Shown here: positions 605 through 42,847 of the stretch, one piece after another
Numbering within the stretch: the first letter of the stretch is position 1
Layout: each line of letters opens with the position of its first letter
Assembly (NCBI GenBank): GCA_965206595.1
Contig: OZ242214.1
Span: 4,064,001-4,128,000, forward strand
Reading direction: 5' to 3'
DNA length: 64,000 nt
Source: Candidatus Latescibacterota bacterium
GTDB lineage: Bacteria; Latescibacterota; UBA2968; UBA8231
Notes under the pieces: model-generated
What the model was told of the DNA's origin: nothing
The model's input: only the letters and a program-made list of their open reading frames with translations
Databases searched by the model: none
Translations under genes and position numbers: made by a program

Positions 605-674
605 TGCCGCTACGTGGGCCGGCTGGCCCTGGGGCGGGGCGTCTGCGCGTCCTCGATGCCGACCATCTTTCCTT
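605..674 (+). mobile_element. IS91/ISCR-family transposase internal fragment (copy 1)
   Basis: Degenerate match to the CRYVARPALAGGRLRILDADHLS segment of copies 4 and 8. Confidence 0.75.
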
Positions 675-890
675 AGATTCGGGAGACGCGCGGCAGCTTG
701 GCGGGGAAAGACAAACGAATTCCCGTAATCTGCAATCGACGGGCCGAGTCCTTTGCGAGACGCAACATCAATGGGCTTCGGTGGTCGTCCAAGGGCACGG
801 CTACGACGAGGGGAGACGCGACTCAGAGTTCCAATGCATAGCTCTGCCGCGGCGTCCCTAACGCGGCCTCGGGGTCGCAGTTGATGGAGA

Positions 891-2443
891 CTTTCCAAGA
901 ACGACCATGAAAACTTCTGGAACGCCGGCGAACGCGACAAGATCGGAGGACTCGACATACTGGGTCTCCGCCGGTTGGACCAGAGCATCGAGCGGGAATG
1001 GGTAGGGGGAATCACGACGATCTCGCTCCGGGCTAGGTACCTATCGCTGCTCCCGTGGGTGGTCGTCGAGTCTACGAGGAGGAACTTCGCCGAGGCGGCG
1101 GAGTGGCGTCGTTCCACGAAGGCCGCTTCTACGAGATGCTCGGCCGGCTGGAGTTCGCCGTCCTCGCGGCTACCCGCGCGAAAGAGAAGGAAGAGCGGAA
1201 TGGCGGCATCTACGGGGTGCTTGGATCGCGATCGGACTTGTTCGGCCGCGCCTTGGCGGAGCTGGACGCGAAGGGGTCCGTGGAGTTGCCGGACGGTTGG
1301 GGCGGGGCTTCGTACGGAACCTACGTCATGCCGTGCCGGTCTTTCGGGCTTGTCGAGACGGGAGATCGCGATCTCCCGGTCGTGATCCCGCCGCGCGGGA
1401 AGGCTCTGCACAAGGCGCGGCGCGACGCTCTGCAGGGCTCGGCACTCGTAGAGGCGATCCTCCATGGTGGGTCGGTAACCGCGTCGACGCTCGCTTCGGA
1501 GGCGCTGTTCTTCTCCGTGAACGGTCTTGATGAACTTCCCCGCGAGCGTGAACTCCTGCAGGAGGCCTTCGTCCACGCATACGTGGATCGCCCGGATGTA
1601 AGCGCAACATACCGACGGTTTCTGGCGACGAGCCGTTGGGCCTTCGAGCGACTCGAAACGCATACGATGTCGTCCGCGCAACTCATCGTCAGCGCCTACA
1701 AGGAGGCCGTGGATGGAGTATCGAGCAGCGACGTCGAGACAGCGTGGGCCGAATACGAACTTCGACGACGCGTGCACTTCGCGATCGAACTGCTCCTGAG
1801 CGCGTTGACCGAGACGTTGATGGACCTGACCGAGGGTACGGTGGACGACGCACTGGATACTTGGTCGAGCGAGGAGCCCCTGCCGCAACTGCTCGTTGAC
1901 GTCCTCGGCGTCGAACAACCTGTCCTTCGAGCGACGGTGGAGGAGATCGAGCGGGGCATGGCGCAGAACGCCTGGCTTAGGCGGGCAGTGCCGATCGTTG
2001 CGGGGCGAGGGCTCCCTTCATGGTGCAAGGCGATCCTCGCCGTGGGCTTACTGGTGGCATCGAAGCGCCAGACCCAGGATGTTCGAGCGGCCGGGCAGAT
2101 ACCGGACCGGCGGGGGGAGTATCTGGAGAGGGCGTTCACCGTGCTAGACGCCGAGCGGAAGAGTCCAGTGGTAACGGCGCTGCGGAGGCTTCTCGTCGAG
2201 GTGGTGATTGAGGCCCACCTCTCGACGACACTTCGGAAGATGAGCCAGGGACAGAAGTGTTCGCTACGCTTCTTTCCGGAGGGGGCGTTGCTTCGGCCTA
2301 CCGGCATTCCAGTGTCTGCCGGGCAAAGCGGCGATCGGCTGGGAAACGTGTTGGGCGTGTGGGCGGATCTCGGCGTTCTTGAGCGGCGAGATGGAGGTTT
2401 CGGTCTGACAGAGCGAGGACGCCGGCTCGTACGGGAGTTGTAG
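891..2443 (+). pseudogene. DUF6361-like putative defence protein, frameshifted near 1070
   Basis: Frame 1 gives [38 protein letters not shown] and joins ORF 1055..2443 (YEEELRR...LTERGRRLVREL) if one T is restored; family assignment from motif memory. Confidence 0.6.
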
Positions 2444-2445
2444 GG

Positions 2446-2669
2446 ATGCGGTCGGATGTGCTGGAGGTGATTTCGTCCGCAAGGGATGTCACCAACGCGG
2501 TCGTTCTCACGCACAACATCGACTTTGTGTTCGTGCAAACGGTGGTCCTATCGGCGTTCCGGCAATGTGGCTATCCCACGATAACAGTTTTCGCCGACAG
2601 CGGGTGTGCGGCGGAATCCTTCGCCCAGCAAAAGGCTGTACTGACCGATCTGGGCGTACGGTACCGCGT
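2446..2669 (+). pseudogene. N-terminus of a phospholipase D-like (PLD fold) protein truncated by IS3
   Basis: NAVVLTHNIDFVFVQTVVLSAFR...TITVFADS resembles N-termini of PLD-type proteins; starts 2 nt after the upstream stop; interrupted at the IS3 end before any HxK motif. Confidence 0.55.
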
Positions 2670-2697
2670 TGATACTCCCCCGAAAAAGTGGACACTC

Positions 2698-3569
2698 TCA
2701 AGCGGCGATTGTGGATAACTGTTGCTCGAATGGGTCGGGTGTCACGTAGTCCAGGGTTGAATGAGTCCTTTTTCGGTTGTAGAAGACTTCGATGTATTCG
2801 AAAAGGCTGCGCTGTGCGGCCCGGTAGTCGAACCAGCGCTCGTGATAGGTCAACTCGGTCTTGAGCAGATGGAAGAAGGACTCGGCCACAGCGTTGTCCC
2901 AGCAGTCTCCTTTACGGCTCATGCTCTGCACGAAGCCTGTGTTGGGTGACCCACTCAGTGAAGCCGGTGCAGGCCTAGTGCACGCCGCGATCGGAGTGGA
3001 TGATCAAGTCCCTTCGGCGGTCGCCGTCGAATGACGGCCCGCTTCAGAGCGGTCAGCGCCACGCTGTGATCCAGCGCCGAGCTCAACGCCCAGCCAACCA
3101 CGCGTCGCGAATACAGGTCGATGAAGACCCCCAGATACAGCCAGCCGCGACCGACGCGCAGGTAGGTGAGGTCGCTGACCCACACCTGATTGGGGCGTTG
3201 CGCGGTGAAATCGCGCTGCAGCCGATTCGGCGCTACCGCAAACCGATGCCGCGAGGTTGTCGTCACCTTGAAGCGACGGCGGACGATCGAGCGCAGCCCC
3301 AGCTGCCGCATGCGCCGTGCAACGCGATTCTTGCTCACTCGCCAGCCTCGTGTCCCCAGAGCTCGAGTGATCTTCGGACTCCCGGAGCGCCGCCTGCTGG
3401 CCTCGTACAACTCGTTGATCTCGACATCCAGTCGCCGTGTCTCCTCAGTCCGAGGACGGATCGGACGCTGCTGCCAGGCGTAGAAACCGCTGCGAGACAC
3501 CTGCAGAACTCGACACAACATGGTGATCGGGTACCTCGCCCTCTCCGCCTCGATGAAGTCGTACCTCAT
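2698..3569 (-). pseudogene. IS3 transposase OrfB (DDE integrase core), frameshifted near 3000
   Basis: WVSDLTYL...FIDLYSRRVVGW in 2955..3569 and SMSRKGDCWDNAVAESFF in 2698..2931. Confidence 0.9.
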
Positions 3570-3853
3570 CGCGATTCGTTGGCGAAGAAGGCCGCCGCCT
3601 TTTTTAGGATATCCCGCTCCTGCGATACCCGCGTCAACTCACGACGCAGTCGCCTGATCTCCTCGTCGCTATCACTCAAGTGGCCGGTCCCCGGAAAGGC
3701 TTCCTCTGCCTTGGCCTTCAACTGCTTCTTCCAACGGCTGATGAGGCCCTGGCTGATGCCCAGGCGCCGCTCTACCTCAACAGCCGTACTCCCCTCTTCC
3801 GAGGCCATGCGGATAGCCTCCAGCTTGAACTCTCGATCATACTTTCCTGTCAT
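3566..3853 (-). CDS. IS3 transposase OrfA (HTH)
   Basis: MTGKYDREFKLEAIRM...ERDILKKAAAFFA; AGGAGG RBS. Confidence 0.92.
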   Translation of the reverse strand: MTGKYDREFKLEAIRMASEEGSTAVEVERRLGISQGLISRWKKQLKAKAEEAFPGTGHLSDSDEEIRRLRRELTRVSQERDILKKAAAFFANESR

Positions 3854-3919
3854 GATAACACCTCCTGCCGGAAATCTAACTCGGCGCTTCGAGGTGTCCA
3901 CTCGCATGGGGAAACATCA

Positions 3920-4028
3920 GAGAGTAGGACGGTCGCCCCTCCGCCGCCACGTGTTCCAGGACGGCAGCCAATCGTTCGATCCATGCTGCTTCCTTGAAGT
4001 TTGGGTATGTCACCCTTCTCTTCATCAT
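3920..4028 (-). pseudogene. Possible 5' stub of an unknown gene truncated by IS3
   Basis: MMKRRVTYPNFKEAAWIERLAAVLEHVAAEGRPSYS runs into the IS3 end. Confidence 0.3.
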
Positions 4029-4325
4029 TTTCGCCCCGCCCCTGCAATGGCAAGGTTCACGGCAGGCGAAGTTCGTTGGTATGACGGCATATCATCTCGG
4101 AGACTTTGGCATGGGGGCGGACTGAACTAGGCAAGCCACGTAGCGGCACAAAGCGTTCGAGCCCCGCCGGTAGAAGCCCACGCTTCGTCAAATGTCGGTC
4201 GGGGGAACTCTTAAGACCGAGAGGCCGCTCCGAAGAAGCCTTTGGTTTTCGGCATAGGCCATTCGTGGAAGCACGGGTTTTATCTGACCATGATCACTCA
4301 TCTGTAAAATCCGACCAACAATAGA

Positions 4326-4774: not shown

Positions 4775-5194
4775 CGGATTCTCCCATAGTTCAGAACGCC
4801 ACGGGCAGATTGGGGCGGCCAACGACGGCAAGCCCACCGCAGGCCGTCAATGGGTTCCGGTTTTCCCCGTCGCGTCGAACCAGCCCGCGTGCCGCCTTGA
4901 TGTCGGCCTCGTGTCACGAGATAGAATTCTCATTGTTTTAAAACCCTGTCAAGAGGCCTTTTTTCTCCACAGCCCTCAGAATTACCGCGCCAGTCTCAAC
5001 AACATGCCGGCCTTCGCCGGCTTCCAGTGAAGCCGGGACCATGACGCCCACCTCGTCGAACGGAGTGACCCAGTCTTCGCCTCCGTACCGGGTGTAGCCG
5101 ATTTTCGCGCGAAGCCCCAGTTGTTGTCCAGCATCTGCTTCATGCCGGGGCCGGCCGTCCAACCCTGCAGTTCCATGTCGCGACTGTCCGTACC

Positions 5195-5368
5195 TCGCGC
5201 GGCTTTTCGCTGCATGCCGCTACGCGGATCGCGGGCCCTGACCGGCAGGGGCTCGAACGCTTATGGCGCTACGTGGCCCGGCCGGCCCTGGCCTCGGGGC
5301 GCCTGCGCCTCCTCGATTCGCAGCGGCTTTCCTTCGCGCTCAAAACGCCGTGGTCGGATGGGACCCGC
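5195..5368 (+). mobile_element. IS91/ISCR-family transposase internal fragment (copy 2)
   Basis: SRGFSLHA.TRIAGPDRQGLERLWRYVARPALASGRLRLLDSQRLSFALKTPWSDGTR. Confidence 0.85.
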
Positions 5369-5480
5369 GGGTGCGCACCCCCGTCGAAGGGGTGCAGGCG
5401 GCGGGTCGCTATCAGGTTGCCTTGGATGGCCGCAGCGACGACGGGATGGCGTTGGCCAGCGGCGTGTACGTGTCTCCGTT
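5369..5480 (+). pseudogene. Fragment of a FlgD-Ig/CTD-like C-terminal domain
   Basis: VRTPVEGVQAAGRYQVALDGRSDDGMALASGVY matches tails of the 15270 and 56745 proteins. Confidence 0.65.
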
Positions 5481-5559
5481 GCGCTTAGGCTCCTTCCCCT
5501 TCGGTATCCGGTAGCCGACGCGAGGCTCGGTGAAGATGTAGGTGGGGTGTTGCTCGAGC

Positions 5560-5895
5560 GTTGTTTCAGCCCCACCGGTTGCCAATGGGCTTGGGATGAA
5601 TCCAGGTTCGGTCATTCTTGGTGTCCTGACCTCCGGACGCAGCCGCAAGCTGAGGCTCGGTGAGTTGACGGTGGAGCTGCGCCATGCACCCCGCTGGCAG
5701 TTGGCAGCGCCTCATCGGCCGGCAGGCGAAGTAGTGCGCGCACTGTCCTGGCTGGGTCCCGATGGGGTGGAGGCTGGCCTGGAAATGATAGGTGGCAAGC
5801 TCTCCGCGGAGGACTTTAAGGAGTTGGCTGCATCGCGTGCTCTAATGCCTGCTTGGGTAGCAGGGCCCGTGAGCGCACTGGTGGCCAATGGCTGA
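5560..5895 (+). pseudogene. 5'-truncated DUF6088/AbiEi-type antitoxin
   Basis: ANGLG...LTSGRSRKLRLGELTVELRHAPRWQL...GEVVRALSWLGP; overlaps the AbiEii start. Confidence 0.75.
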
Positions 5896-6755
5896 CACGT
5901 CGTTTCAGTCACTCTCGCTCGAAGACCAGCGGGATGCCCTGGGGGTGGCCGCCAGCCTCAGCGGAAGACAAGCACATCTCCTGGAGAAGGACATCTGGGT
6001 TGTTCACACCTTGAGCGCTCTTGTGAAAAGCCCTTTTGGCGGGGCCTTGACGTTCAAGGGAGGAACCTCTCTGGCCAAGGCATATCACGCTATTCGTCGA
6101 TTCTCGGAAGACCTCGGCATCACCCATGACATCCGCACCATTGCTCCTGACTTGGTGGAGAGAGGTGGGGGAGACGCTTTGCCATCCACGCGCAGCCAGG
6201 AGCGAAACTGGACGCGGGAAATAAGGAAGCGCTTGGCCGAATGGGTGGGAGAACATGCACGTCCCACCATCGAGACCAACCTGTCGCAATCCGGCCTGTC
6301 GGCACGGGTGCGAGCTGACCAGGACCGGGTATTCGTTGGCTATGAGCCGTTGTTCTTCTGACTACGGCTTCGTCAGGCCGGAGGTAACGCTGGGGTTTGG
6401 GGCACGCTCGACAGGAGAGCCTCGCGAGGAGCGTCAGATCGAGTGCGATGCGGCACCTTACATATCTGACGTAGCGTTCCCCACAGCTCACACCCTGGTC
6501 ATGTTGGCCGAGCGCACGTTCTGGGAGAAAGCTACCGCCATGCACGTCTTCTGTCGCCAGCAACGAAGACGCGGGGAGCGACTCTCCCGCCACTGGTATG
6601 ACCTGGTACGCCTGGATGACGCCAGCTTTGCCCAGACCGCGCTTGGCGACCGTACGCTGGCCCAATCGGTAGCGAGGCACAAGGCGATGTTCTTCCGGGA
6701 AAAGGACGCCTTGGAGTGTTGGATCGACTACGAGGCGGCAGTAACGGGGGGTGTC
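5888..6755 (+). pseudogene. AbiEii/AbiGii nucleotidyltransferase toxin (type IV TA), frameshift near 6355, 3'-truncated
   Basis: LLEKDIWVV...FKGGTSLAKAY..IRRFSEDL, then FGARSTGEP...ERTFWEKATAMH...SRHWYDL in the next frame. Confidence 0.85.
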
Positions 6756-6868
6756 TTTAAGCATTCTTATCAAAAATCCAACGGGGGAAGAGAAAGAAAT
6801 AGCATCCGCGACACGCAGAATGATTAGGGCAATGGATGAGCTGTTTGAGTTGGAGCAATTCCTAAACC

Positions 6869-7408
6869 ACGCTACCACGGGGTCCTGGCGCCCCGGGCCC
6901 GGGCCCGCGACCGCATCGTGCCAGCCAAGCCGGTTGCCGAGTCGTCGGCGGCGGACGGCTCGGCGAGCGTTGCGTCCTGCGGCCATCGACTGCGGTGGGC
7001 GACCCTGCTGGCGCGGGTGTTTTCCTCCGACCTCAGCGAATGCGCGGCATGCGGCGGTCGCCTGAGAATCATCGCCGCCCTGACCGATCCGGCCTCGATC
7101 CGGACCTATCCTGGAGGGAGTAGGGCTGCCGGCGATGCCCCCGCCGAGGGCCCCGCCTGAGCCGCTTTTCGAGTTCGCCGCCTGACCTCCTTCGCGATGG
7201 GCTCCCGGCACCGGTGAGCCGTACGGAGGAGTGCGCGCTCAAGTACCAGATCGACCCCTGAAACGGGCCGAAATCAAATTACAACGGTACTCTGAGCTTT
7301 TCTCAAACGATTCTGGACGACGAAAAGCGATTCATCAGGGACCCTGATGGACCTTTACGCACGTTCTCAGTGAACGGAATAGTACCGATATGTGCCTGAT
7401 TCCTATAC
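6869..7408 (+). mobile_element. IS91/ISCR 3' fragment with type-B tail and oriIS-like end (copy 3)
   Basis: RYHGVLAP...WATLLARVF...CAACGGRLRIIAALTDP; ends GTGCCTGATTCCTATAC. Confidence 0.88.
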
Positions 7409-8317
7409 TCTTTGAGACCGTGATTTCCACCGCGTGACGTATCGAGAAGTTGCGCGCAAGCTGACGCTGCTCGGATGCCAGGAACGTGAGCGACATCGAC
7501 CGGGCGCGAGGGACTGCACTCCGCGCCGCGGGACTCGCCCCTGACAGCCGGACTCCGGCTCCCGGTGTCACGGTGTGCCCGATGTGTTGTGAGAGCGGGG
7601 AAAGCGCCGCTGGCCGCGCGGGGCTTAGCTTAGCGGGAATGGCAGCCTTACGGTCCGGCGAAAGGGTCGCCGCGACGCTCGGAGTGGCTGGCGCCGTCGT
7701 GGCGTGCGCGTGCAGTGGGTTCGACCGGCACGCCGGTCAGCGCCGGCAAGGGCATCCTGGTCGGGGAGAGCGTGTGGCCGATGCGCTCTGCAAGGTGGTC
7801 CTCACCGGATGGGCTACCTTTGTCGGATGCGGGGGTGCGCGCGAGGTCGTCGTCCAGAGTTCATTTTTGGCGGGAACCTCAGCACAACGGCGACTACATG
7901 GCAACTGGCGCGTATGGCGGCGAGCTGATAGCGTTCGCCGGGTCATGGGAACCTGCGCACAACCGCATGGTGCGGATACGTGTGTTCGACCCAGCCTCAG
8001 CCTTGGAGCGCCCCGAGACGACGTTGGGTCGTTTTACCCCAATATTGTTGGATTAAGGCTGCAGTGCTATGGTCCGTGGCGTGCTCGTACGCTCTAGTCG
8101 CTGTGGACCGCCAGAGTCTTGGGATTCGGTGCGCACGCCGCCACGAGGGAAGCTTGATGACGAATGAACCCGACGTAACCACCTGTCTGCTAGGGGTCGG
8201 AAGCCGCTTCGAGACTGCCGCCGCTAGCGTTTTCCGCCCCAGTAATTCGGAGCGGATAGCCATCGGATCCGAGCTGCGGACGGTGCCAGGCCGCGGCACC
8301 GGACGAGGGCTGGCGCA

Positions 8318-10423
8318 ATGAAAGCTACCGAAGCCAAGTTCCTAGATTTCCTCGAGAACTCACCACAGTTCGTCATCCCGATCTATCAGCGCACGTACTC
8401 ATGGACCGAGCGTGAGTGCCGCCAGCTATGGGATGACATCGTGCGGACCGGAAGCAACGATGCCGTCTCGGCCCATTTTGTCGGTTCCATCGTCTACATC
8501 GAGAAGGGCTTGTACCAGGTATCCCGTAGGCCACCTCTCCTTGTGATAGATGGCCAGCAGAGACTGACCACGGTCACCTTGATTCTCGAAGCCTTAGCGC
8601 GCCAACTGGGGGATCGCGAGCCCGTTGACGGCTTCTCGGCCGAGAAATTGCGCAGTTACTACGTGCTGAATCCGTTGGAGAAGGGAGAGCGCGGATTCAA
8701 GCTGCTGCTCACACAGACCGACAAGGCGAGCCTGCTGGCCTTGGTTCAACAGAAGGCACAACCCACCGACCAATCCCTGCGCGTCACTGAGAATTTCGCC
8801 TTCTTCGAGGAGCAGGTGCAGAACCTTGGGGCCAACCTTCCCGCGCTTTGCCACGGCCTTGCGAAGCTGGTCGTGGTCGACATCGCGCTCAGTCGAGACC
8901 AGGACAATCCCCAGCTCATCTTTGAGAGTATGAACTCGACCGGACGCGAGCTGAGCCAGGCCGACCTGATCCGAAATTATATCCTGATGGGGCTAGAGCC
9001 CGCTCACCAGACTCGGCTATACGAGGATCACTGGCGCCCGATGGAAGTGGGTTTTGGGCAGGAGGGGTACGGCTCACATTTCGACAGCTTCATGCGGCAC
9101 TACTTGACGCTCAAGACGGGAGAGATACCGAACATTCGAGCGGTATACGAAGCGTTCAAGTCTCATGCGCGAACGCCGGATATAGACGCTGCGGGCGTGG
9201 ATGCGCTCGTCGCGGATATTCACGCCTTCGCGGGCTATTACTGCGCGATGGCACTGGGGAAAGAAGCCGATAAGAGGCTCGCTGAGGCATTTCGTGACCT
9301 GAGAGAGCTGAAGGTGGACGTCGCCTATCCGTTCTTGCTTGAGCTCTACGATGATTATGCCAACGGAAGACTCGAGAGCACTGACTTCGAGGCTGCCGTC
9401 CGGTTGGTCGAGGCGTACGTATTCCGCCGCTCGGTGTGTGCGATTCCTACAAACTCGCTGAATAAGACTTTCGGCACTTTCGGGCGAGCGCTGCAGAAAG
9501 ACCGGTACCTTGAGAGCGTCCAGGCTCACTTGCTGACGCTGCCTTCCTATCGCCGGTTCCCGGGCGACGAGGAGTTCAAGCGCGAGTTTGTCGTGCGTGA
9601 TCTCTACAACTTTCCTCGTCGAAGCTACTGGCTGCGCCGACTCGAAAACGATGGCCGCAAGGAGCGTGTTCCAGTCGACGAATACACCATCGAGCACATC
9701 CTTCCGCAAAACGAGAATCTGTCTGCGAAGTGGCGGGAGGAACTCGGACCCGAGTGGCAGCGCGTCCAGGAAACCTGGTTACACACGCTCGGAAATCTTA
9801 CGCTCACCGGCTACAACGTCGAATACAGCGACCGATCCTTTTCGGAAAAGCGTGAGATGAAAGGGGGATTCCGGGAGAGCCCACTAAAGCTCAACGAGGG
9901 CCTGAGAAGCCTCGACAAGTGGGATGAAGCGGCTATCAAGAACCGCGCTCAACGCCTTGCCGCTGTGGCCGCGGGTGTATGGGCGGTGCCTTCTTTGCGA
10001 GCCGAAGTACTCGAGTCGTACCGTCCGCGTGGCGAGCAAGCAGGGGGCTACACGATCGATGACCATCCGCAGCTCGCGATCGGTTCGCCCATGCGCGAGC
10101 TGTTCGAGATCTTTCGTAAGGACCTTCGGGCGCTCGACCCGTGCGTCTCGGAAGAGTTTCTGAAGCTCTATGTCGCCTACAAGGCCGAGACTAACTTCGT
10201 AGACATAATTCCCCAGAAAAGTCGCCTTCGCCTGTCGCTCAATATGCAGTTTCACGAATTACATGATCCGAGAGTTCTGGCCAAGGACGTCACCAATCTT
10301 GGTCGTTGGGGTAATGGTGATGTAGAGGTAGGCCTTAGCAAGCCGGAAGAGCTGCCCTACGTGATGGGCCTGGTCCGGCAGGCGTTCGAAAAGCAAATTG
10401 GATTCGTAGAGGCGGAAGCGTGA
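8318..10423 (+). CDS. GmrSD-like modification-dependent restriction nuclease (DUF262 + DUF1524/HNH + DUF5655-like tail)
   Basis: [43 protein letters not shown] motifs; 701 aa intact. Confidence 0.92.
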
Positions 10424-10437
10424 GAGAGGGGCGGACG

Positions 10438-11475
<1,038 letters not shown>

Positions 11476-11499
11476 GTTCTCGACGCCGACATGGACCGG

Positions 11500-13737: not shown

Positions 13738-13752
13738 CGCTCATATGGCTCG

Positions 13753-27262: not shown

Positions 27263-27379
27263 CCGCGGGGTTTTCCGCGGGCGTCTAGCTGCAGGTTATA
27301 CCAAATTCCCAAAAAGACCAAAAACCCAAGTGGGGGAGCGCTTTAATGCCGCGGGCCGACTATTGGGGTGGCGAGAACA

Positions 27380-30430: not shown

Positions 30431-30473
30431 TTGAGTATCCCCCGCCCTTGGACCGCCGGAGGGTCAAGCCGCG

Positions 30474-34470: not shown

Positions 34471-34544
34471 GTCTGCTTACCCCCGGTCATAGAGCAAGCC
34501 CCCGGAATACAACGGACGCGAGAACAGGTGGTCCGCCCATTGCT

Positions 34545-35968
34545 GTGTGGCCGGCACCATGCCGGCCACACCTGCCCATCCCCCCGCGTACCGCCGCCGC
34601 GAACCGGAAAAGGAGCCCCTCTACCAGATCCTCGCCGGGCATCTGGAAGCCTTTCTCCAGCAAGCCGGAACGGCCGAGCACCGACTGCCGCTCCATGTCG
34701 AGAAAGAGATGCGGGCCTACCTCGAATGCGGCATTCTGGCTACCGCCTCGCCTACGACGGCGAGTGGGTCTCGAAGGTACTTGCGGTGTTTCTGCGCGTG
34801 GTGGGGCGCTGGTATCGACGTCAAGCGCAGGTCATGGGCCATGGTAATTCACGTTGGGGCTCGGTAACCTTCGTCCAAAGATTCGGTTCCTCCCTGAACC
34901 TCAATCCCCACGTACACGTGCTCATGCTCGACGGAGTCTACGTCGATGGGGAGGACGCTCCGGTTTTCGTTCCGGCCCCGCCGTTGTCCGACCAAGCCGT
35001 GCAGCAGATCGTGGAGACGAGTGCGCGCCGCATCATGCGCTTGTGCACGAAACGCGGCCTGCTCGACGACACCGCAGCCGATCCGCTCGCCGACGAGGAG
35101 CCCGTGCTGGCGGCTCTCACCGCGGCTTCGGTGCGAGGGCTCACCGCCACCGGGGCACGCGCCGGCCAACGCCTGCGCCGGGTCCTGAAAGATGCGGCCA
35201 CCGGGGTGCGTACGGCGCCCTTGTGCTTTGCTTCGCGCGGCTTTTGGCTGCCTGCGGCAACGCGGATCGCAGGTCCTGGCGGCGGGGCGTCTGCGCATTC
35301 TCGATGCCGACCCTCTTTCCTTCGCGCTCAAAACGCCGTGGTCGGATGGGACCCGCCATCTCCTGCTGTCTCCGATGGAACTGCTGGAGAAGCTGGCGGC
35401 TCTGGTCCCCCCGCCCCGGTTTCATCTCCTACGCTACCACGGGGTCCTGGCGCCCCGGGCCCGGGCCCGCGACCGCATCGTGCCGGCCAAGCCGGTTGCC
35501 GAGCCGTCGGCGGCGGACGGCTCGGCGAGCGCTGCGTCCTGCGGCCATCGGCTGCGCTGGGCGACCCTGCTGGCGCGGGTGTTTTCCTCCGACCTCAGCG
35601 AATGCGCGGCATGCGGCGGTGGCCTGAGAATCATCGCCGCCCTGACCGATCCGGCCTCGATCCGGACCTATCTGGGGGGTAGGGCTGCCGGCGATGCCCC
35701 CGCCGAGGGCCCCGCCTGAGCCGCTGTTCGAGTTCGCCGCCGGCCCTGCCTTCTCGACCCGTCGCCGTCGCCGGGCGTACGGCTGGGTGTGCCCTCAACG
35801 GTCCCTCAGGCCCCGGATTGATCCGGATACGGGCCTACAGGCAACCAGACCGGACTGCGAGCTCGGTCGAAGGATTGGCAAACGATCCTCTCAGGGAGCT
35901 GCCGGACCCTTGCGGTGCGCTCAGCGCCTTGACCGAGAGTCAAAAAAGGTGCCTCATTTTTCCTATAC
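34545..35968 (+). mobile_element. Longest IS91/ISCR-family copy (copy 7): HUH transposase pseudogene, type-A tail, oriIS-like end
   Basis: YRRREPEKEPLYQIL...YLECGILA; VQRFGSSLNLNPHVHVLMLDGVY (HUH); zinc-binding region and RYVARP segment deleted; ends CCTCATTTTTCCTATAC. Confidence 0.92.
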
Positions 35969-36179
35969 TTTGGAAGGCAGGGGCCAGCGCTTCACCAGTG
36001 CCGAGGAGTTGCGCCGAGACCTCGGCTTCTGATATGCTAACCGCTGTCCGCCCCCTCGCAGTTCAAGCGCGATGTGCGGAGGGCCAAGGTCCGGGGCAAG
36101 GATCTGAAGCGGCGAGATGGCAGCGCCAGCGAAGCCGCAGCATCAGCCCCCTTCTCCCACTCACGAATAGGAGCGCGCC

Positions 36180-37208
36180 ATGCATGCTCAGAGACCGAAC
36201 CTCTTCGATTACGCGACTTCAGAACTCTCGCAAGATGCCTTCCTTTGTTGGCTGCTCAAATGGGCTGATCCGACTTGTCGAGAATTCAGCGAAGCCTTGC
36301 ACGAAGCCGGAGTGGACTTGATCCGCCTTCTTTCCGCTGGGGAAGAGGGGTATTCAGAAAAGATCAATACCGTATGCGTGGAAAAACAGGTTGACCACAT
36401 TGACGTTCTATGTGTGCTCAACGAGCAGGAAGAGACTAAAGCTGCTATCCTGATTGAGGACAAGAAGGGTACTCAGGAACATTCGGACCAGCTGCAGAGA
36501 TACAAGGAACTGCTAAGTAAGGGCTTTCCGCAAGACAGGATTATTGCCGTCTATGTTCAAACTGACGATCAAAGCGATTACGGTAATGTGCGCAGCCATG
36601 GATATGATGTTGTCAGTCGACCTGATCTCCTGGCAGTCCTCGAGAAGTGCAGAGAAGCCCGAAGCCAGAGCGACATCCTTGACGGATTCGTGCGCCACCT
36701 ACGATCCATAGAGGATGAGGTGCAGAGTTGGCAATCCAAGCATCCCACAGATTGGTCATGGAGTGCCTGGAAAGGCTTCTTCATGGAATTGCAGGGAACC
36801 TCCGTAAAGGGAGACTGGGACTACATTCCAAACGAGAGCGGTGGCTTCCTGTGCTACTGGTATGCTGCTCGGGAAACTGATGAGACTTGGATGCACATCG
36901 ACCATGCGAAGCGTACTCTGTGCTTTCGCTTGGCTATGTCAGAGGCAGACACAGACCAAAGGTATGCACTGAGAGATCAGTGGAGTGGCTGCATCATTGA
37001 TCGATGCAAGGAGCTGAACATTCCTGCGAGAAAACCTCAGCGCTTTGGACGTATATCCGCTGGTAGCTTGACCGTTGCAGAGATTGATCGTGAAGCTTGG
37101 CTAAGGGTGCAGGACGGCCTTGTAGACCTTGACGCTACGGTGGCCACCATGGAGAAGTGCCTGGAGGTTGTCCGGCACTGTATAGAAAGCGACAGGGAAC
37201 GAAATTGA
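36180..37208 (+). CDS. PD-(D/E)XK-superfamily nuclease
   Basis: PNLFDYATSELSQDAFLCWLL, HIDVL...ILIEDKK..EHSDQLQRY; AGGAG RBS; low GC. Confidence 0.85.
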   Translation: MHAQRPNLFDYATSELSQDAFLCWLLKWADPTCREFSEALHEAGVDLIRLLSAGEEGYSEKINTVCVEKQVDHIDVLCVLNEQEETKAAILIEDKKGTQEHSDQLQRYKELLSKGFPQDRIIAVYVQTDDQSDYGNVRSHGYDVVSRPDLLAVLEKCREARSQSDILDGFVRHLRSIEDEVQSWQSKHPTDWSWSAWKGFFMELQGTSVKGDWDYIPNESGGFLCYWYAARETDETWMHIDHAKRTLCFRLAMSEADTDQRYALRDQWSGCIIDRCKELNIPARKPQRFGRISAGSLTVAEIDREAWLRVQDGLVDLDATVATMEKCLEVVRHCIESDRERN

Positions 37209-37229
37209 TATCCCCCATCAGCCGAGGTC

Positions 37230-38383
37230 CTGTCAAGGGGTCCGCCGCTGCCGCTCCCGCGTCGGGCGGGCGGGCGGGCGGGACGTTGAGGAAGCGGTCG
37301 AGGTAGACGCGCATCGCCCCGTGGTAGACGCCGCGCAGCATCTCCGGCGACTCGGCCCTCTTCAGCATCTGATGGAGGGCGTTGGCGTACGAGAAGGTGT
37401 GGAGCACCGCGATCCAGTCGGAGAACTCGTTGTTCACGTGGAAGCGGACGATGCGCAGCGCCGCGGCCATCGTGATCGCCTCCGCCAGTAGCACGGGGCG
37501 CGCGCCTCTCCTCAGGGCCTCGTTCAGCCCCTCCACGATCGCGTGGGGATCGTCCTGCAGGAGCGCGTCGGTGAACTCGCCGCTGCCCTTCCACTCCCTC
37601 CCCCCATCTCCGCCAGGTCGGCCGGGCTCGAAGGGCCCTCGATGGCGGCCAGCAGGGTGCGTTCCGCCCCGTCGCCGTTGCGCACCTCGATCAGGTAGCG
37701 GAACCACCGTCTCAGCGCGTCGTGCGGGATCGCCCTGCTCTCGAGGGGCCGGAGCGGGACCCGCGGCGGCTGGCCGCTGGTGTTCGTCGCTACGTGGAGG
37801 ACCCCCTGGTACAGGGGGCGATGCGCTCGTCGCCTTGGAGGTGGTCGGTCACGTTGGCCATGGCCGAGAGGATCGTCATGCCGTCGGCCCAACCCGAGCG
37901 CCGCCGGCGCACTCCGTAGAGGCCGCTGGCCCGCACGACGTCATCCGGGTCCGCCCCGGCGCGCAGGAGTGACACCACGGCCTTGGCCATCACCAGCCGG
38001 ATGTTCTGGTCCATGCCCTCCTCGAGGCGGCGCAGGCCGCGCTCGACCGGGTCGCGAGGGGGCGCGGAGAGGTCGATGTACACGCGCCCGTCCTTGACTT
38101 CCACCGGGTAGACGGTGGCGTCGTCGGCAAAGAGATCGAAGGTGCAGCCGCTGTTGAGGTCGAACCGGGCGTGGTGCCAGTGACAGGTCAGGATGCCGTC
38201 CTCCACGGTCCCGCGATGCAGGGGAAACCCCATGTGCGGACAGCGGTTGTCCACGGCGTGGAGGTTTCCCTCCGAGTAGAACACGACGATCGGTACGGGT
38301 CCACCGGAAACCACGGTTCTCCCCTTGAGCCTGATCTCCTCCAGGGTCCCCGCGTCCAGCAGTCTCGACTCTGATCTGTCCAT
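37230..38383 (-). pseudogene. Rieske [2Fe-2S] domain protein with helical C-terminus, frameshifted and deleted
   Basis: NRCPHMGFPL...LTCHWHHARFDL; later AALRIVRFHVNNEFSDWIAVLHTFSYANA in other frames. Confidence 0.82.
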
Positions 38384-38435
38384 GACTTTCTCCTTTCGGA
38401 TGGCGGCTCTCCATGAGCCGTGGACCGAATCTGCA

Positions 38436-38458
38436 ACTTCAAGTATACTTGAAGTCAA
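38436..38458. promoter_or_regulatory. SoxR operator within a MerR-type promoter for the Rieske gene
   Basis: Perfect palindrome ACTTCAAGTATACTTGAAGT resembling the sox box CCTCAAGTTAACTTGAGG; minus-strand TTGACT-19 bp-CAGATT. Confidence 0.85.
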
Positions 38459-38469
38459 GGAGAATCTTC

Positions 38470-38937
38470 ATGGCCGAGCTTCCGGAGTCCCTGACCATCG
38501 GTGAGGTAGCGGCGCGCAGCGGGGTCGCCACCTCCGCCCTGCGCTTCTACGAGGAGGAGGGCCTGATCTCCTCGGAACGGACCCGCGGCAACCAGCGGCG
38601 GTATCCACGGGCGGTCTTGCGCCGCGTCGCCGTCATCCGGGCCGCCCAGAGGGTCGGCGTATCTCTACGGGAGATCCGCTCGGCCCTGGACGGCCTTCCC
38701 AGCGGGCGCACGCCCAACAAGGCGGAGTGGGCAAGGCTGTCGCGGGGCTGGAGGGATCAGCTCGAGGAGCGGATCGAGACGCTGGAGAGGTTGAAGCAGA
38801 GCCTGACCGGCTGCATCGGCTGCGGCTGCCTGTCCCTGCGGTCGTGCTCGCTCTTCAACCGGGAGGACCAGATGGCATCCCGGGTCGACGGCAGTTCCCT
38901 GATGGGGAAACCCGCGAGGCGCCCGTCCTCCGGGTAA
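38470..38937 (+). CDS. soxR: Redox-sensing transcriptional activator SoxR
   Basis: LTIGEVAARSGVATSALRFYE, GNQRRY, GCIGCGCLSLRSC cluster motif. Confidence 0.96.
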   Translation: MAELPESLTIGEVAARSGVATSALRFYEEEGLISSERTRGNQRRYPRAVLRRVAVIRAAQRVGVSLREIRSALDGLPSGRTPNKAEWARLSRGWRDQLEERIETLERLKQSLTGCIGCGCLSLRSCSLFNREDQMASRVDGSSLMGKPARRPSSG

Positions 38938-40078: not shown

Positions 40079-40482
40079 GCCTATTCTCCGTGGTTTCTTC
40101 CCTAGTCCTTCTCAGCCTTCTTTCGCTTGCTTCTCACGCCGTTCCACCACGATCTGGTTACTCGTCTTCGGTGGAGAGTTGAGCAGGTTTCCTGGCGACC
40201 TTCTGCGCTGCGTCGTGAACGCTGTCGGGGATGGCCGGGTGTCGCTTCGGGCCGGGCTTAGGCATTAGTCGTTGAGCTTTCTTGCATTCCCTGCGATGAG
40301 GAACCAGTGGTGGTGAAGGGATGTACAGTATCCGGTGACTCCGGTAGAGTCAAACTCGCCCAGCCGTATAGAAAGATGGCTGGGGGGACGCCAACCGTTC
40401 AGATGTGCACTTACCCCGCACGCTGGCAGATGTGTGCTGAGTTGAGGATATAATTCCCTTCTTCATCTCGTTCTCCTCGTGG

Positions 40483-40950
40483 TCATGAGCCCGGGCGGTA
40501 CTCCAGCTCCACCCGGTTCTCGGGGCCCCGGAGGCCCATGGTGTTGACCGCCCGCGCCCGCAGGCGGTTGCGGCCCGGGTGCAGCTCCCACTCGAAGGAG
40601 GCGCCGCTCTCCTCCCACTCCCCCCGGTCCAGGCTGACCTCGAAAGCGGTCCAGGTGGGGGATGGGGCTGGTAGAGCTGGGTGAACAGCCCATGGAGCTG
40701 CTCGGCGGGAACGGGCGGCGGCGGCACGAAATCGATGTTCCCCATCCGGCCGGCGGCGGCGAGGCGGTGCATCTCGAGGGCGTTGATGGGGGCGCCGGCC
40801 TCCTCGTACTGGAAGGCGACCTCGTGGCCGGGCAGGAGCCCCGGGTCCTGGAGGATCCACTTGCCGTGCTCGTCGGACCAGATCTCGGCCAGGCAGTGGT
40901 GGTCGACGATGAGGGCGCGGGCGTGGTAGCCGAGAGCGGCGGCGCACTGG
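40483..40950 (-). pseudogene. C-terminal fragment of a transglutaminase-like protein
   Basis: CAAALGYHARALIVDHHCLAEIWSDEHGKWILQDP...GRNRLRARAVN; 5' part replaced by IS91 copy 8. Confidence 0.65.
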
Positions 40951-40951
40951 C

Positions 40952-42847
40952 GCCCCGCCGTTGTCGGACCAAGCCGTGCAGCAGATCGTGGAGACGAGTG
41001 CGCGCCGCATCATCCGCTTGTGCACGAAACGCGGCCTGCTCGACGACACCGCAGCCGATCCGCTCGCCGACGAGGAGCCCGTGTTGGCGGCTCTCACCGC
41101 GGCTTCGGTGCGAGGGCTCACCGCCACCGGGGCAGGCGCCGGCCAACGCCTGCGCCGGGTCCTGAAAGATGCGGCCACCGGGGTGCGTACGGCGCCCTTG
41201 TGTTTTGCTTCGCGCGGCTTTTGGCTGCATGCGGCAACGCGGATCGCAGGCCCTGACCTGCGGGGAACCTATCTCAAAATTGAAATTGTTTAAGCAAAAT
41301 CAAAATGGATGCAAGTTGGACGAAGCCAAGAAAATTCTCCGGATACAATTCCCAGCGAGTGATCACTCGACGCTGCCATTGAAGCCAAGCAAAGAATCTC
41401 TCAACCATCCAAGGCCGCACATAACGCCGCAATCGCCGTCCATCCTGAGTCTTTTGCTTGCTCCGATTCTGGCGATGCGGGGCGATCATCTCGATCCCGT
41501 CTTTCTTAAGCTCTTCATCCAACGAATCGCTGTCGTACGCTTTATCGCCGATCAAGTTGTCAGGTTGGTCTTCGATGAGGTAAAAGTCAAAGGTCAACTG
41601 AACCAGCGTCACTTCATGATGGTTCGCTGCATGCGTGCTCACCGACAAGGGAAGCCCATTGCCGTCCACGATCCCCATGACCCGCACCCCCTTACCTCGC
41701 TTGGTGTGGCCGATATCGGCACCTCCACCCTTGGCCGCCGAGAACATGCCGTCGATGAAAGCCTCCGATTCGTCCAGGCCCCCTTGCTCGTGAAGGGTCT
41801 GGGCCAAGTCCATGAGAACTTCGCGTACCACCCCTTGACGACACCCGTTTTGAAAACGGCGATGCACGGTTTTGTAGTTCGGATAGCACTGCGGCAACAT
41901 AGGCCATTGAGCCCCGGTGTTTAGAATCCAAAGGACGGCTTCAAAAACATCACGCGTGCAAACCGGTTTGCGACCCGGATAGCTCTTGGGACGAAGTTCT
42001 TCAGGAAAGTGATGGCGGATTCGTTGCCATTGCATGTCGGTCAGATTGACCATACACCAATGGTACATCACTGTCATTTCGGGAACAAGTTTAAGTTTGC
42101 CTATTTTGAGATAGGTTCGGGTCTCGAACGCTTGTGCCGCTACGTGGCCCGGCCGCCCTGGCGGGAGGGCGTCTGCGCATTCTCGATGCCGACCATCTTT
42201 CCTTGGCGCTCAAAACGCCGTGGTCGGATGGGACCCGCCATCTCCTGCTGTCTCCGATGGAACTGCCGGAGAAGCTGACGGCTCTGGTCCCCCCGCCCCG
42301 GTTTCATCTCCTGCGCTACCACGGGGTCCTGGCGCCCCGGGCCCGGGCCCGCGACCGCATCGTGTCGGCCCAACCGGTTGCCGAGCCGTCGGCGGCGGCC
42401 GGCTCGGCGAGCGCTGCGTCCTGCGGCCATCGACTGCGGTGGGCGACCCTGCTGGCGCGGGTGTTTTCCTCCGACCTCAGCGAATGCGCGGCATGCGGCG
42501 GTGGCCTGAGAATCATCGCCGCCTTGACCGATCCGGCTTCGATCCGGACCTGTCTGGAGGGGGTAGGGCTGCCGGCGATGCCCCCGCCGAGGGCCCCGCC
42601 TGAGCCGCTTTTTGAGTTCGCCGCCTGATCCTGCCTTCTCGACCCGTCGCCGGGCGTACGGCGGGGTGTGCCCTCAACGGTCCCTCAGGCCCCGGATTGA
42701 TCCGGATACGGGCCTACAGGCAACCAGACCGGACTGCGAGCTCGGTCGAAGGACTGGCAAAACGATCCTCAGGGGAGTTGCCAGACCCTTGCGGTGCGCT
42801 CAGCGCCTTGACCGAGAGTCAAAAAAGGTGCCTCATTTTTCCTATAC
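40952..42847 (+). mobile_element. IS91/ISCR 3' portion (copy 8) interrupted by IS5; type-A tail and oriIS-like end
   Basis: SDQAVQQIVETSARR...IAGPDLRG|IS5|LERLCRYVAR...EPLFEFAA; ends CCTCATTTTTCCTATAC. Confidence 0.92.
41265..42118 (-). mobile_element. IS5-family element, single-ORF transposase ending at 41274
   Basis: Perfect 16-bp IR GAACCTATCTCAAAAT; G-run duplication of about 2 bp; LTDMQW, WILNTGAQW, IGDKAYDSD, WMVERFFAWL. Confidence 0.94.

Follow-up and report, generated by a model that had tools for sequence, protein, structure and literature searches.

Among the described systems that resemble the locus analysed here, IS801, known from Pseudomonas syringae plasmids together with its ori801 fragments, is a rolling-circle element for whose movement the right (origin) end alone suffices. 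According to the available portions of the reports, many IS801 events yield right-end fragments truncated on the 5′ side of the transposase (fragments of 229-679 nt make up 26% of events), upstream DNA of 0.3-1.4 kb (290-1431 nt) can be recruited, the transposase works in trans, one-ended events give rise to origin-anchored deletions, and few copies are intact while many are truncated, as on p1448A-A with one intact copy, 10 truncated copies and eight ori801 (PMC3189936, PMC6354349). The present locus appears similar in each of these traits. It differs in that IS801 fragments start at defined tetranucleotides such as GAAC and the IS801 target is GAAC/CAAG, whereas here no such motif is apparent and the flank is TT, in that the IS801 cases are plasmid-borne, and in that strict co-orientation and arrays of up to 17 copies are not seen in those portions of the IS801 reports, whose authors judged most genomic fragments to be reorganisations (PMC3189936, PMC6354349). 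For IS91, the accessible part of the report gives one-ended transposition as 1-10%, or about half of events if the transposase is expressed without Orf121, and states that the bottom-strand circle alone inserts (PMC13181058).

A second parallel is offered by ISCR1, ISCR27 and the complex class 1 integrons, with which the locus shares its best protein model (NF052416), the motif TTCCTATAC about 230 nt past the stop codon, direct copies separated by cargo and one-ended transposition that mobilises DNA lying upstream of the transposase gene, as far as the excerpts of these papers go; those systems lie on a resistance plasmid, whereas this is an environmental chromosome with mostly truncated stubs, no flanking integron segment and no resistance genes in the cargo (PMC8894482, PMC13023784, PMC13393415). 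Catabolic clusters of sphingomonads are likewise framed by several IS91-family copies with a conserved terminal region, and are duplicated through the shared end, and circles have been observed there; unlike the array here they are plasmid-borne, with few and largely complete copies, and the available text reports no truncation gradient (PMC5737581). In integrons, too, a repeated sequence in constant orientation separates unrelated gene blocks, but here there is no IntI, attI or attC, the separators are transposon ends and the blocks do not consist of single promoterless genes. In Helitrons and in relaxase-piloted T-DNA transfer, an HUH enzyme on one DNA end leaves one exact and one ragged junction, and Helitrons pick up gene fragments too; as eukaryotic or inter-kingdom systems, these offer an analogy only.

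The window, the whole stretch of DNA analysed, comprises 64,000 nt of a Candidatus Latescibacterota bacterium (GCA_965206595.1, contig OZ242214.1, positions 4,064,001-4,128,000, forward strand). Our best explanation, which as a whole we accept with slightly better than even confidence, is that it contains what decay has left of about ten copies of a single ISCR-like (IS91-family, HUH) rolling-circle insertion sequence specific to Candidatus Latescibacterota, and that the array arose by abortive and one-ended rolling-circle transposition, recombination and decay. The pattern fits behaviour already known for IS801 and ISCR1 and not a novel gene-collecting device.

The element and its copies in the window

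PF04986 was matched in six reading frames of the window fragments and the NCBIfam ISCR model was their top match, in agreement with the IS91/ISCR assignment of the initial annotation. Intact relatives of 476-480 aa contain both PF14319 and PF04986, and score 330-364 bits against NF052416, so far under the model cut-off of 925 that they belong to a clade distinct from that of the ISCR model. The full element, about 1.87 kb long, opens with a leader of about 200 nt that contains a subterminal palindrome, followed by the gene for the 476-aa transposase and a tail of about 225 nt, whose final bases, ...TTTTNCCTATAC, constitute the origin end about 225 nt past the transposase stop codon. An ISCR-type end had been proposed, and TTCCTATAC is indeed contained in the oriIS of ISCR27 and ISCR1 as printed in the accessible parts of the reports, that of ISCR27 being similarly placed, 236 bp after the stop codon (PMC8894482, PMC13023784).

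Copies were placed on a DNA profile of 1871 positions, made from five near-full copies in relatives. Together with the neighbouring insertion sequences and gene blocks they are ordered as follows.

605-676, plus strand: c1, internal 72-nt fragment, profile 1142-1214, no tail
2690-4131 (approximate limits), minus strand: IS3-family element (Pfam rve/HTH_Tnp_1; NCBIfam IS3, 212 bits), abutting the minus-strand relic
4132-4187, minus strand: relic of 56 nt, profile 1103-1158 (blastn 38 nt at 94.7%; nhmmer E 4e-6)
5191-5368, plus strand: c2, internal fragment, profile 1069-1246, transposase residues about 290-347, no tail
5369-6866, plus strand: AbiE remnant, AbiEi without its N-terminus, AbiEii frameshifted and without its C-terminus
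6867-7408, plus strand: c3, 5′-truncated, profile 1320-1871, subfamily-B tail, end TTCCTATAC
7409-11690, plus strand: block with two unknown ORFs, GmrSD-type enzyme, HsdM and a ribokinase piece
11691-12467, plus strand: c4, 5′-truncated, profile 1076-1867, subfamily-A tail, final bases mutated
12556-17285, minus strand: block with two GFO/IDH/MocA oxidoreductases and a 671-aa protein with a FlgD_ig/CHU_C end
17545-17607, plus strand: c5, old 63-nt fragment, profile 1402-1464, E 6.5e-10
20004-20652, plus strand: c6, 5′-truncated, profile 1227-1871, subfamily-B tail, end TTCCTATAC
20682-27285, no strand assigned: block with LLM oxidoreductase, cupin, SnoaL, PhyH, an unknown ORF and diaminopropionate ammonia-lyase
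28245-29868, plus strand: IS66-family element
30473-30625, plus strand: c7, tail-only stub, profile 1672-1871, degenerate end TCTATAC
32298-34474, plus strand: two tandem IS630-family copies, the second frameshifted, abutting and truncating the 5′ end of c8
34475-35968, plus strand: c8, longest copy, profile 115-386 joined to 579-1871, complete tail
35969-36215, no strand assigned: 247-bp segment directly past the c8 origin end
36171-38934, no strand assigned: block with PDDEXK nuclease, Rieske protein and SoxR
40952-41267, plus strand: c9a, left part of the last copy, profile 815-1130
41266-42118, minus strand: IS5-family insertion splitting c9
42119-42847, plus strand: c9b, right part of the last copy, profile 1126-1871, complete tail

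All eight pieces first listed were recovered on the plus strand by self-BLAST, Pfam, tblastn with an intact 476-aa relative and the DNA profile; c5 (plus) and the relic (minus) had been overlooked, as had the 854-bp IS5-family insertion interrupting c9, and c8 starts at 34475, 70 nt ahead of the 34545 given before. The initial statement that all copies are co-oriented thus holds for those eight but not overall, since the relic leaves 10 of the 11 pieces on the plus strand (binomial p = 0.012). As had been stated, no intact copy or transposase is present in the window, where the longest copy, c8, carries a frameshift and is missing its first ~115 nt as well as residues 62-125. The 3′ side of c5 is cut where IS701-family DNA starts. 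An ISL3 remnant lies upstream of c6.

Six copies keep the tail, each with a 5′ breakpoint of its own, as originally described. The CTATAC-type ending is exact, as TTCCTATAC, in four of the six (ending at 7408, 20652, 35968 and 42847; expected 0.04 occurrences), is degenerate at 30625 and is mutated near 12467. The two tail subfamilies have only the last ~20 nt in common, about 150 nt having diverged. Profile coverage in the window climbs from 0-1 copies on the 5′ side to six at the origin end, and origin ends outnumber retained 5′ ends six to none (p = 0.03), the window, unlike the loci in relatives, not having been chosen by its tails.

Orientation and polarity in related genomes

A genome scan with the last 20 nt of the tail returned 60 loci, 58 of them in eight Candidatus Latescibacterota assemblies, with tails clustered 2-6 kb apart. 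In 22 regions with 109 copies in all, 107 copies follow the orientation of their region, and orientation is uniform in 14 of the 16 regions with at least three copies, so that the co-orientation reported for the window recurs. Ten related repeats of 60-1500 nt within 43 kb could invite repeat-induced misassembly; however, the window copies differ by 5-17% with a breakpoint unique to each, the c8 and c9 junctions are common to the independent assembly CBDCXV010000010.1 at 99% identity, and the same architecture occurs in the eight other assemblies, five of them labelled whole chromosomes, which makes such an artefact extremely improbable.

Coverage in the relatives increases along the profile, with four copies spanning position 50 and 87 spanning position 1860. 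Origin ends number 87 against nine 5′ ends, but since the origin end served to fetch the loci, the proportion of 87 in 109 is inflated. Of 82 copies extending to the final profile position, 80 end in CCTATAC, and TT followed by variable sequence comes after 72 of 77 subfamily-A ends. The 5′ breakpoints are spread almost continuously, each with a different flank, and inspection by eye revealed no IS801-like end tetranucleotide at them. An intact transposase is encoded in one relative by an uninterrupted 476-aa ORF (L020, 10226-11656) inside a 17-copy array.

In the mechanism that we favour, transposition would begin at the origin end and copy leftwards; an early stop or imprecise joining of the far end would give a 5′-truncated origin stub, exact at one end and ragged at the other, while copying past the proper stop would take upstream DNA along. 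Stubs would remain usable by the transposase of an intact copy elsewhere in the genome, and new copies would insert nearby in the same orientation, so that arrays build up. Their later reshaping would come from rejoining next to origins, from gene conversion and unequal recombination among the direct repeats, from small internal deletions and from the arrival of unrelated DDE elements. We infer that stubs are truncated at birth and fired in trans, and that some factor fixes their orientation. An empty site was found for none of the 118 copies, and truncation at insertion is therefore indistinguishable from later deletion.

Full-length copies might instead have been inserted independently into a region tolerant of insertions, aligned by a strand preference linked to replication or transcription, and reduced by later random decay to inert stubs. 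At least eight other IS families have accumulated in the region, and the 77-kb array of chromosome OZ244619 is a similar sink; deletions in situ and insertions of DDE elements into copies are directly seen. Moreover, non-element ORFs lie on the strand of the element for 59% of residues (Mann-Whitney p = 0.006) and GC skew shows the same trend (p = 0.049), although both statistics are rough and pseudo-replicated. Random decay should, however, spare both ends equally, contrary to the 6:0 and 87:9 excess of origin ends, and along OZ244619 orientation flips four times, a pattern not expected under a simple two-replichore rule. As an indel exactly at an origin junction and two transposase-less units re-copied with exact origin junctions (below) also speak against it, we regard passive accumulation as rather unlikely.

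Apparent stub mobility and array rearrangement

Two re-copied stubs, both in relatives, were encountered among 93 tail-bearing matches. A 1356-nt unit without a transposase gene, composed of 755 nt from a gene interior and profile 1271-1871, is present in two copies of 99.9% identity, 3.1 kb apart and with different DNA after the origin end, one of them in an intact gene context. A transposase-less unit of 584 nt, with two copies 778 nt apart at 99.3% identity, was duplicated with 160 nt of upstream DNA, and new flanks follow directly after the origin end. Because both stem from metagenome-assembled genomes, they may be assembly duplications. Combined with the intact 476-aa gene in one array, these units lend support to the earlier suggestion of ori ends driven in trans, and origin-bearing stubs appear to have been moved in this way in the relatives.

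One-ended events could also generate circles of cargo and a partial element that enter a resident copy by homologous recombination, which is, in the accessible part of the report, a published route to multi-copy ISCR1 arrays (PMC13023784); IS91-linked circles are on record in the portion available of another (PMC5737581). Recombination among copies is evident here, and this route explains direct orientation without a strand rule. It would, however, leave direct repeats flanking every cargo block, whereas no duplicated conserved segment flanks the blocks, neighbouring copies differ in 5′ extent and few are full length. The left junctions of the re-copied units are moreover novel and lie in non-element DNA, so that these units were inserted and not recombined in. 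Growth by this route is considered very unlikely.

Comparison with the closest relative bore out the expected variation in cassette content, with differences sited at the fragments. The block at 20682-27285 is syntenic and 96% identical, and that at 36171-38934 is 97-99.7% identical with several indels of 100-700 bp. The 247 bp at 35969-36215 are missing from the relative, in which the tail abuts the homologue of 36216, and this indel sits exactly at the c8 origin junction. The IS5-family insertion in c9 corresponds to a site empty of IS5, c9a and c9b are respectively 99% and 94% identical to their counterpart, and synteny stops at the c9b origin end. Multi-unit indels bounded by tails likewise separate the arrays of OZ244619 and OZ242318. 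Individual copies have certainly been eroded in situ, given the IS630 cut of the c8 5′ end, a 192-nt deletion in c8 not found in the closest relative, and further internal deletions in the positional counterparts of OZ242318. The tails evolve in concert. On their tree, tails of one array tend to group together: the array label changes 25 times, compared with a mean of 38.6 after shuffling, and none of 1000 shuffles reached so low a value. In addition, c8 and c9 are more similar to one another than to their positional counterparts in the relative. Gene conversion alone may account for this array-wise grouping.

Gene blocks between the tails

On balance, and as part of the explanation favoured above, the blocks between stubs are probably for the most part resident island DNA and gene debris, fragmented by the transposition and rearrangement described, rather than cassettes from a dedicated system. 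The initial annotation had viewed the region as a functional integron-like platform in which origins fired in trans import whole defence and catabolic genes to the benefit of the host. Such arrays recur in eight assemblies, upstream DNA can ride with stubs, block content varies between relatives with the differences at stubs, and the genes between the tails include defence-type ones (AbiE, GmrSD, HsdM and a PDC-S26-like nuclease) as well as oxidoreductases. The platform reading nevertheless fares poorly: neither an integrase nor an attachment site was found in the window (no PF00589 recombinase match in the 141 ORFs scanned), and the blocks consist of several genes on both strands, interspersed with eight DDE elements. 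Many cargo genes are broken, the only DNA seen travelling with a stub is gene fragment (the 160 and 755 nt of gene interior), and no window block is duplicated together with its tail. The Rieske-SoxR block, furthermore, is reversed relative to the stubs in OZ244619. We therefore hold an accretion platform collecting defence and catabolic cargo to be distinctly unlikely.

The breakage is illustrated by AbiEi, which covers positions 108-193 of 202 in the PADLOC profile, and AbiEii, covering 5-135 and 137-252 of 309 in two frames. HsdM is cut C-terminally, ending at 346 of 834 profile positions, and the ribokinase piece of about 45 residues abuts c4, while the GmrSD-type enzyme (8246-10420) looks intact. 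Broken genes in the OZ244619 array include half of an Ldh_2 gene, HsdS, a zeta toxin, and DEAD helicase and M20 fragments. The cargo named initially was recognised as AbiEi/AbiEii, GmrSD-HsdM, oxidoreductases, LLM-PhyH-DpaL and PDDEXK-Rieske-SoxR, with the exception of the toxin-antitoxin pair, whose sole match was HigB-like (E 0.036). The DDE elements lie on both strands, as first described, with IS3, IS701, ISL3 and IS5 on the minus strand and IS66, two IS630, IS1380 and IS256 on the plus strand.

Pieces of the element in the window and their family identity

The initial annotation had described eight + strand pieces of one IS91/ISCR-type element, none of them intact, and this description is upheld. 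A self-BLAST with the two longest copies as queries recovers all listed pieces on the + strand, PF04986 (IS91-type transposase) is matched by Pfam in six reading frames over the window fragments, tblastn with P0002, an intact 476-aa protein of a relative, places each window piece along the protein, and a DNA profile of 1871 positions, constructed from the near-complete copies of the element found five times in relatives (ATG near 201, stop near 1640), delimits the pieces as follows.

Pieces of the element in the window, with profile positions covered
605-676, + strand: c1, profile 1142-1214
5191-5368, + strand: c2, profile 1069-1246
6867-7408, + strand: c3, profile 1320-1871
11691-12467, + strand: c4, profile 1076-1867
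17545-17607, + strand: c5, initially overlooked
20004-20652, + strand: c6, profile 1227-1871
30473-30625, + strand: c7, profile 1672-1871
34475-35968, + strand: c8, the longest, profile 115-386 joined to 579-1871
40952-41267 and 42119-42847, + strand: c9, profile 815-1130 and 1126-1871
4132-4187, - strand: relic of 56 nt next to an IS3 element, initially overlooked

The claimed co-orientation holds for the eight pieces first listed and extends to c5, but the relic lies on the opposite strand, which leaves 10/11 pieces on the + strand (binomial p = 0.012). Also overlooked was an 854-bp IS5-family insertion that splits c9. No copy in the window is intact and none retains the left end of the element. 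It is possible that c2 and c3 are a single copy split by an AbiE remnant (profile 1069-1246, then 1320-1871), but the two parts diverge unequally from c8 (about 85% versus 95.5% identity). Among the profile matches of the window and the relatives, no tail has a truncated copy directly after it, as the insertion of one copy into another would leave. A module of ~177 nt (profile ~1070-1247) is met in different contexts with almost identical boundaries on both sides, at 5191-5368 in the window and at 12091-12234 and 19101-19277 within the region 2482750-2508648 of OZ242318.1, where it is joined to profile position 1721 across a CCGC microhomology.

The intact proteins of the relatives (476-480 aa) are 84-92% identical to the queried C-terminal frame and contain both PF14319 and PF04986, and the His-x-His of the HUH-type transposase is visible in LNPHVHVL. 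The window fragments score better with the NCBIfam ISCR model than with the IS91 model, while the intact relatives reach 330-364 bits against ISCR clade Ia (NF052416) and 97-108 bits against IS91 (NF033538), in both cases under the curated cut-offs of 925 and 125 bits, respectively. As judged from these scores, this indicates a kinship at the family level, nearest to ISCR and within neither curated clade. We therefore regard the element as a new, ISCR-like addition to the IS91 family, with a behaviour as known for the family.

Downstream of the stop codon the tail continues for ~225 nt and terminates in TTTTNCCTATAC (...CATTTTTCCTATAC), with CCTATAC at the end in 80/82 copies that reach the last profile position. 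The nonamer TTCCTATAC occurs four times in the window, each time at a tail end (0.04 expected); the c7 end reads TCTATAC and that of c4 is mutated. The same nonamer is contained in the oriIS sequences printed in reports on ISCR27 (236 bp past the stop; PMC8894482) and ISCR1 (PMC13023784), which bears out the ISCR-type origin end proposed at the outset. The window tails belong to two subfamilies, A (c4, c7, c8 and c9) and B (c3 and c6), divergent over ~150 nt; that the last ~20 nt are nevertheless kept argues for a functional constraint on the origin end. After 72/77 subfamily-A ends, TT is followed by variable sequence. This TT could belong to the target or be the final dinucleotide of the element, and differs from the CTTG/GTTC reported for IS91 (PMC13181058). 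Upstream of the ATG the relatives have ~135-200 nt in common, including an imperfect palindrome, a candidate for the termination end (terIS). Inverted repeats of at least 40 nt are lacking in the window, alifold on 80 tails gave no hairpin structure from an alignment that is too gappy, and the longest copy has no match in the plasmid collection (blastn, distant mode). In L057, a stretch of the relative OZ244619.1, an origin end (9880-10060, - strand) is followed by four extra CTATAC, its last hexamer, and then by four TTTAC, a repeat expansion exactly at the cleavage end that possibly stems from slippage in repeated initiation.

Arrays and graded loss in relatives

One scan of genomes for the terminal 20 nt of the tail identified 60 loci, 58 of which are found in eight Candidatus Latescibacterota assemblies; the two others (Rhizobiaceae and Anaerolineales) are chance matches with nothing further of the element. 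The loci were merged into 24 stretches, 665 kb in all, and the profile matches were chained into copies. The tails are clustered, 2-6 kb apart, and 107/109 copies (22 regions) follow the orientation of their region. Orientation is uniform in 14/16 regions with three or more copies, and arrays on one chromosome differ in direction. An intact transposase is present in a relative: OZ244619.1 has an array of 17 copies, one of which contains an uninterrupted reading frame for the 476-aa protein. The 77-kb array around this copy resembles the window in that it also comprises other IS families, genes of accessory metabolism and numerous broken genes (one half of Ldh_2, and parts of HsdS, of a zeta toxin, of a DEAD helicase and of an M20 peptidase). 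An IS200-type (Y1 HUH) transposase gene borders the largest of the ISCR arrays (808-1308 of the OZ244619.1 stretch L026).

The loss of sequence is graded. In the relatives, profile position 50 is covered by 4 copies and position 1860 by 87, and just 9 copies keep the 5' end, although the count at the origin end is inflated, as the loci were fetched by that end. The window, which was not picked by its tails, has the same gradient (0-1 copies 5' versus 6 copies 3'; 6 vs 0, p = 0.03). The 5' breakpoints are spread near-continuously, denser toward the 3' end, with a different flank at each, and inspection by eye at the fragments and at two re-copied units revealed no common tetranucleotide and no TT. 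Internal deletions that spare the origin end are found in many copies. A search for empty sites yielded none for 118 copies. Three predicted chimeric proteins of relatives represent host genes read into truncated ISCR fragments: P0001 continues through the tail, P0020 has sulfatase domains and P0014 combines PF00589 (tyrosine recombinase) with PF04986.

Re-copied stubs, turnover and orientation

Stubs, i.e. 5'-truncated copies with an origin end, have been re-copied together with flanking DNA in two cases among the 93 tail-bearing profile matches compared, the relatives being metagenome-assembled genomes. In CBDCXV010000010.1, the closest relative, a 1356-nt unit (755 nt of gene interior plus profile 1271-1871) occurs twice in the same orientation, 3.1 kb apart and with 99.9% identity; the DNA right after the origin end is unrelated between the copies, one of which lies where the gene is intact. 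The second case, from OZ244619.1, is a unit of 584 nt, made up of 160 nt of flank and profile 1448-1871, with two copies 778 nt apart and 99.3% identical. Since neither unit contains a transposase, the copying must have taken place in trans, in agreement with the earlier proposal that origin ends are driven in this manner.

The window is syntenic with CBDCXV010000010.1:539478-570329 (96-99.7% identity across shared blocks), and this independent assembly contradicts a misassembly of the repeats, which is hardly credible. All synteny breaks fall at ISCR pieces. Left of c8 the DNA differs between the two genomes, and a 247-bp segment that precisely fills the interval from the origin end of c8 to the following gene is found only in the window; the counterpart in the relative consists of the tail, TT and then the downstream sequence of the window without the 247 bp. 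Synteny ends at the origin end of c9. Its left part is 99% identical to the counterpart, whereas the part right of the IS5 insertion is only 94% identical, and judged from these identities the IS5 site seems to mark the limit of a tract of conversion or recombination. The arrays of OZ244619.1 and OZ242318.1, with flanks 97-99% identical, are distinguished by indels of several units that have tails at their borders and, between positional counterparts, by further internal deletions. The variation between relatives for which the initial annotation had called thus exists, and is bounded by pieces of the element.

A tree of 61 tails from 19 arrays, with array labels shuffled within genomes (1000 shuffles), requires 25 label changes against a shuffled mean of 38.6, and 0/1000 shuffles are as low; for the OZ244619.1 tails alone the numbers are 7 and 18.4. 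In this tree c8 and c9 are closer to one another than to the copies at their positions in the relative, and c3 is the sister of c6. The grouping of tails by array implies that copies derive from one another or have been homogenised by gene conversion, and the comparison with CBDCXV010000010.1 shows, at the level of sequence identity, that conversion contributes.

Our preferred reading, held with somewhat better than even confidence, is that the array was built by rolling-circle transposition that started at the origin end many times over, with truncation, re-use in trans and later reshaping. Many products would be 5'-truncated, some by abortive or imprecise termination and some by later erosion; we infer that truncation occurred at birth. 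Read-through would now and then bring upstream DNA along, stubs would be re-used in trans and reinserted locally, and recombination and conversion among the direct repeats, together with DDE insertions, would remodel the array. The truncation gradient, the re-copied stubs with upstream DNA and the origin-anchored indel indirectly suggest a one-ended rolling-circle basis. For every step the family offers a precedent. Of IS801 events, 26% are reported to be right-end fragments of 229-679 nt, upstream DNA of 290-1431 nt can be recruited, the transposase works in trans and deletions are anchored at ori801 (PMC3189936, PMC6354349). One-ended events of IS91 amount to 1-10%, and to about half when the transposase is expressed without Orf121 (PMC13181058), and both multi-copy ISCR1 arrays (PMC13023784) and IS91-linked catabolic clusters with circles (PMC5737581) have been described. 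A passive graveyard of copies with a strand preference is rather unlikely, as it explains neither the polarity of the loss nor the re-copied stubs. Growth by circles and homologous recombination is less likely still, since the copies are of unequal extent and the re-copied units have novel left junctions.

As to the orientation of the arrays, 59% of the residues in non-element ORFs are on the strand of the element (p = 0.006 across regions), a modest bias, and in DNA outside the element the GC skew shows a weak, local trend in the same direction (p = 0.049); both measures are rough, from regions that are not independent. OZ244619.1 has four orientation changes along the chromosome, which exceeds a plain two-replichore prediction. 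Of the circles of IS91, only that of the bottom strand inserts (PMC13181058), and by analogy a strand rule for insertion is plausible; the text of that study contains neither 'lagging' nor 'replication fork'.

The island, its cargo and the wider setting

The first ~45 kb of the window have a G+C content of about 60%, compared to about 70% in the flanking core-like genes. Other elements occur on both strands (IS3, IS701, an ISL3 remnant, IS66, two tandem IS630, IS5, IS1380 and IS256) and touch five ISCR pieces: the relic (IS3), c5 (IS701), c8 (IS630), c9 (IS5) and c6 (ISL3 remnant upstream). The two IS630-family copies are located head to tail at 32298-34474, the second carrying a ~169-nt deletion and a frameshift and directly adjoining the truncated 5' end of c8. 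The initial cargo labels are borne out by domain searches, with the exception of the toxin-antitoxin pair, which is unverified. Several of the genes are broken: AbiEi is missing the N-terminus, AbiEii has a frameshift and no C-terminus, HsdM extends over just 346/834 profile positions and a ribokinase piece of ~45 residues adjoins c4. GmrSD, two MocA-type oxidoreductases, an LLM enzyme and SoxR look whole, and the diaminopropionate ammonia-lyase scores above the cut-off yet covers only model positions 22-333 of 402. For annotation, the message is that this region is an insertion-sequence-ridden plasticity zone in which several 'defence' genes are remnants. The Rieske-SoxR block (37250-38931) is 82% identical in the ISCR-bearing OZ244619.1, where its orientation to the stubs is opposite, and a homologue of GmrSD (8318-10401) is found at 67% in ISCR-bearing regions of the same relative.

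The initial annotation read the array as an adaptive, integron-like platform for gene accretion, which is improbable: an IntI-type recombinase is not apparent (no PF00589 match among the 141 window ORFs scanned), nor are attachment sites (no inverted repeat of at least 40 nt and no Rfam match), and no instance of a complete gene that had travelled with its tail was encountered. The cassettes of an integron consist of one gene each, mostly without a promoter, share one orientation and are bounded by attC, whereas the window blocks comprise 2-6 genes on both strands, contain broken genes and other insertion sequences, and are bounded by transposon tails. The ISCR1-type complex array combines direct copies with a duplicated conserved segment around the cargo; the window shares the direct orientation, but no duplicated conserved segment flanks its cargo blocks.

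The available parts of the literature on IS91-family or Latescibacter elements contain no description that we found of arrays of this scale and near-perfect co-orientation, nor of such arrays in the chromosomes of any uncultured phylum. The spread of many resistance genes is attributed to ISCR elements, whose movement is mostly inferred. For an ISCR-related unit, one abstract states that mobility had not been demonstrated (PMC9376610). The Latescibacterota arrays represent >100 natural products of one ISCR-like element, with exact origin ends, graded far-end loss, re-copied stubs with neighbouring DNA and an intact source copy, and lend themselves to comparative studies of how rolling-circle insertion sequences start, stop and acquire DNA, of a strand rule at insertion and of the repeat-driven turnover of genomic islands. 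A wider and only tentative idea is that the arrays are strand-fixed and self-propagating: an autonomous ISCR-like copy may seed nearby stubs, which fire in trans, take with them as much as about 1 kb of upstream DNA, change their downstream junctions and recombine, so that arrays would act as shuffling zones for accessory and defence genes. If true, this would parallel, in bacteria, the capture of gene fragments by Helitrons and would provide evidence from nature for one-ended transposition of ISCR-type elements.

Scans of the window for tRNA, Rfam families and tandem repeats gave no matches. Three very large ORFs of ~70% G+C at 48660-56742 have fn3, cadherin, Calx-beta and FlgD_ig domains (Pfam) and internal repeats of ~640-1000 nt with 65-98% identity (families D3, D4, D6 and D17), and look like surface proteins with a T9SS-type end.
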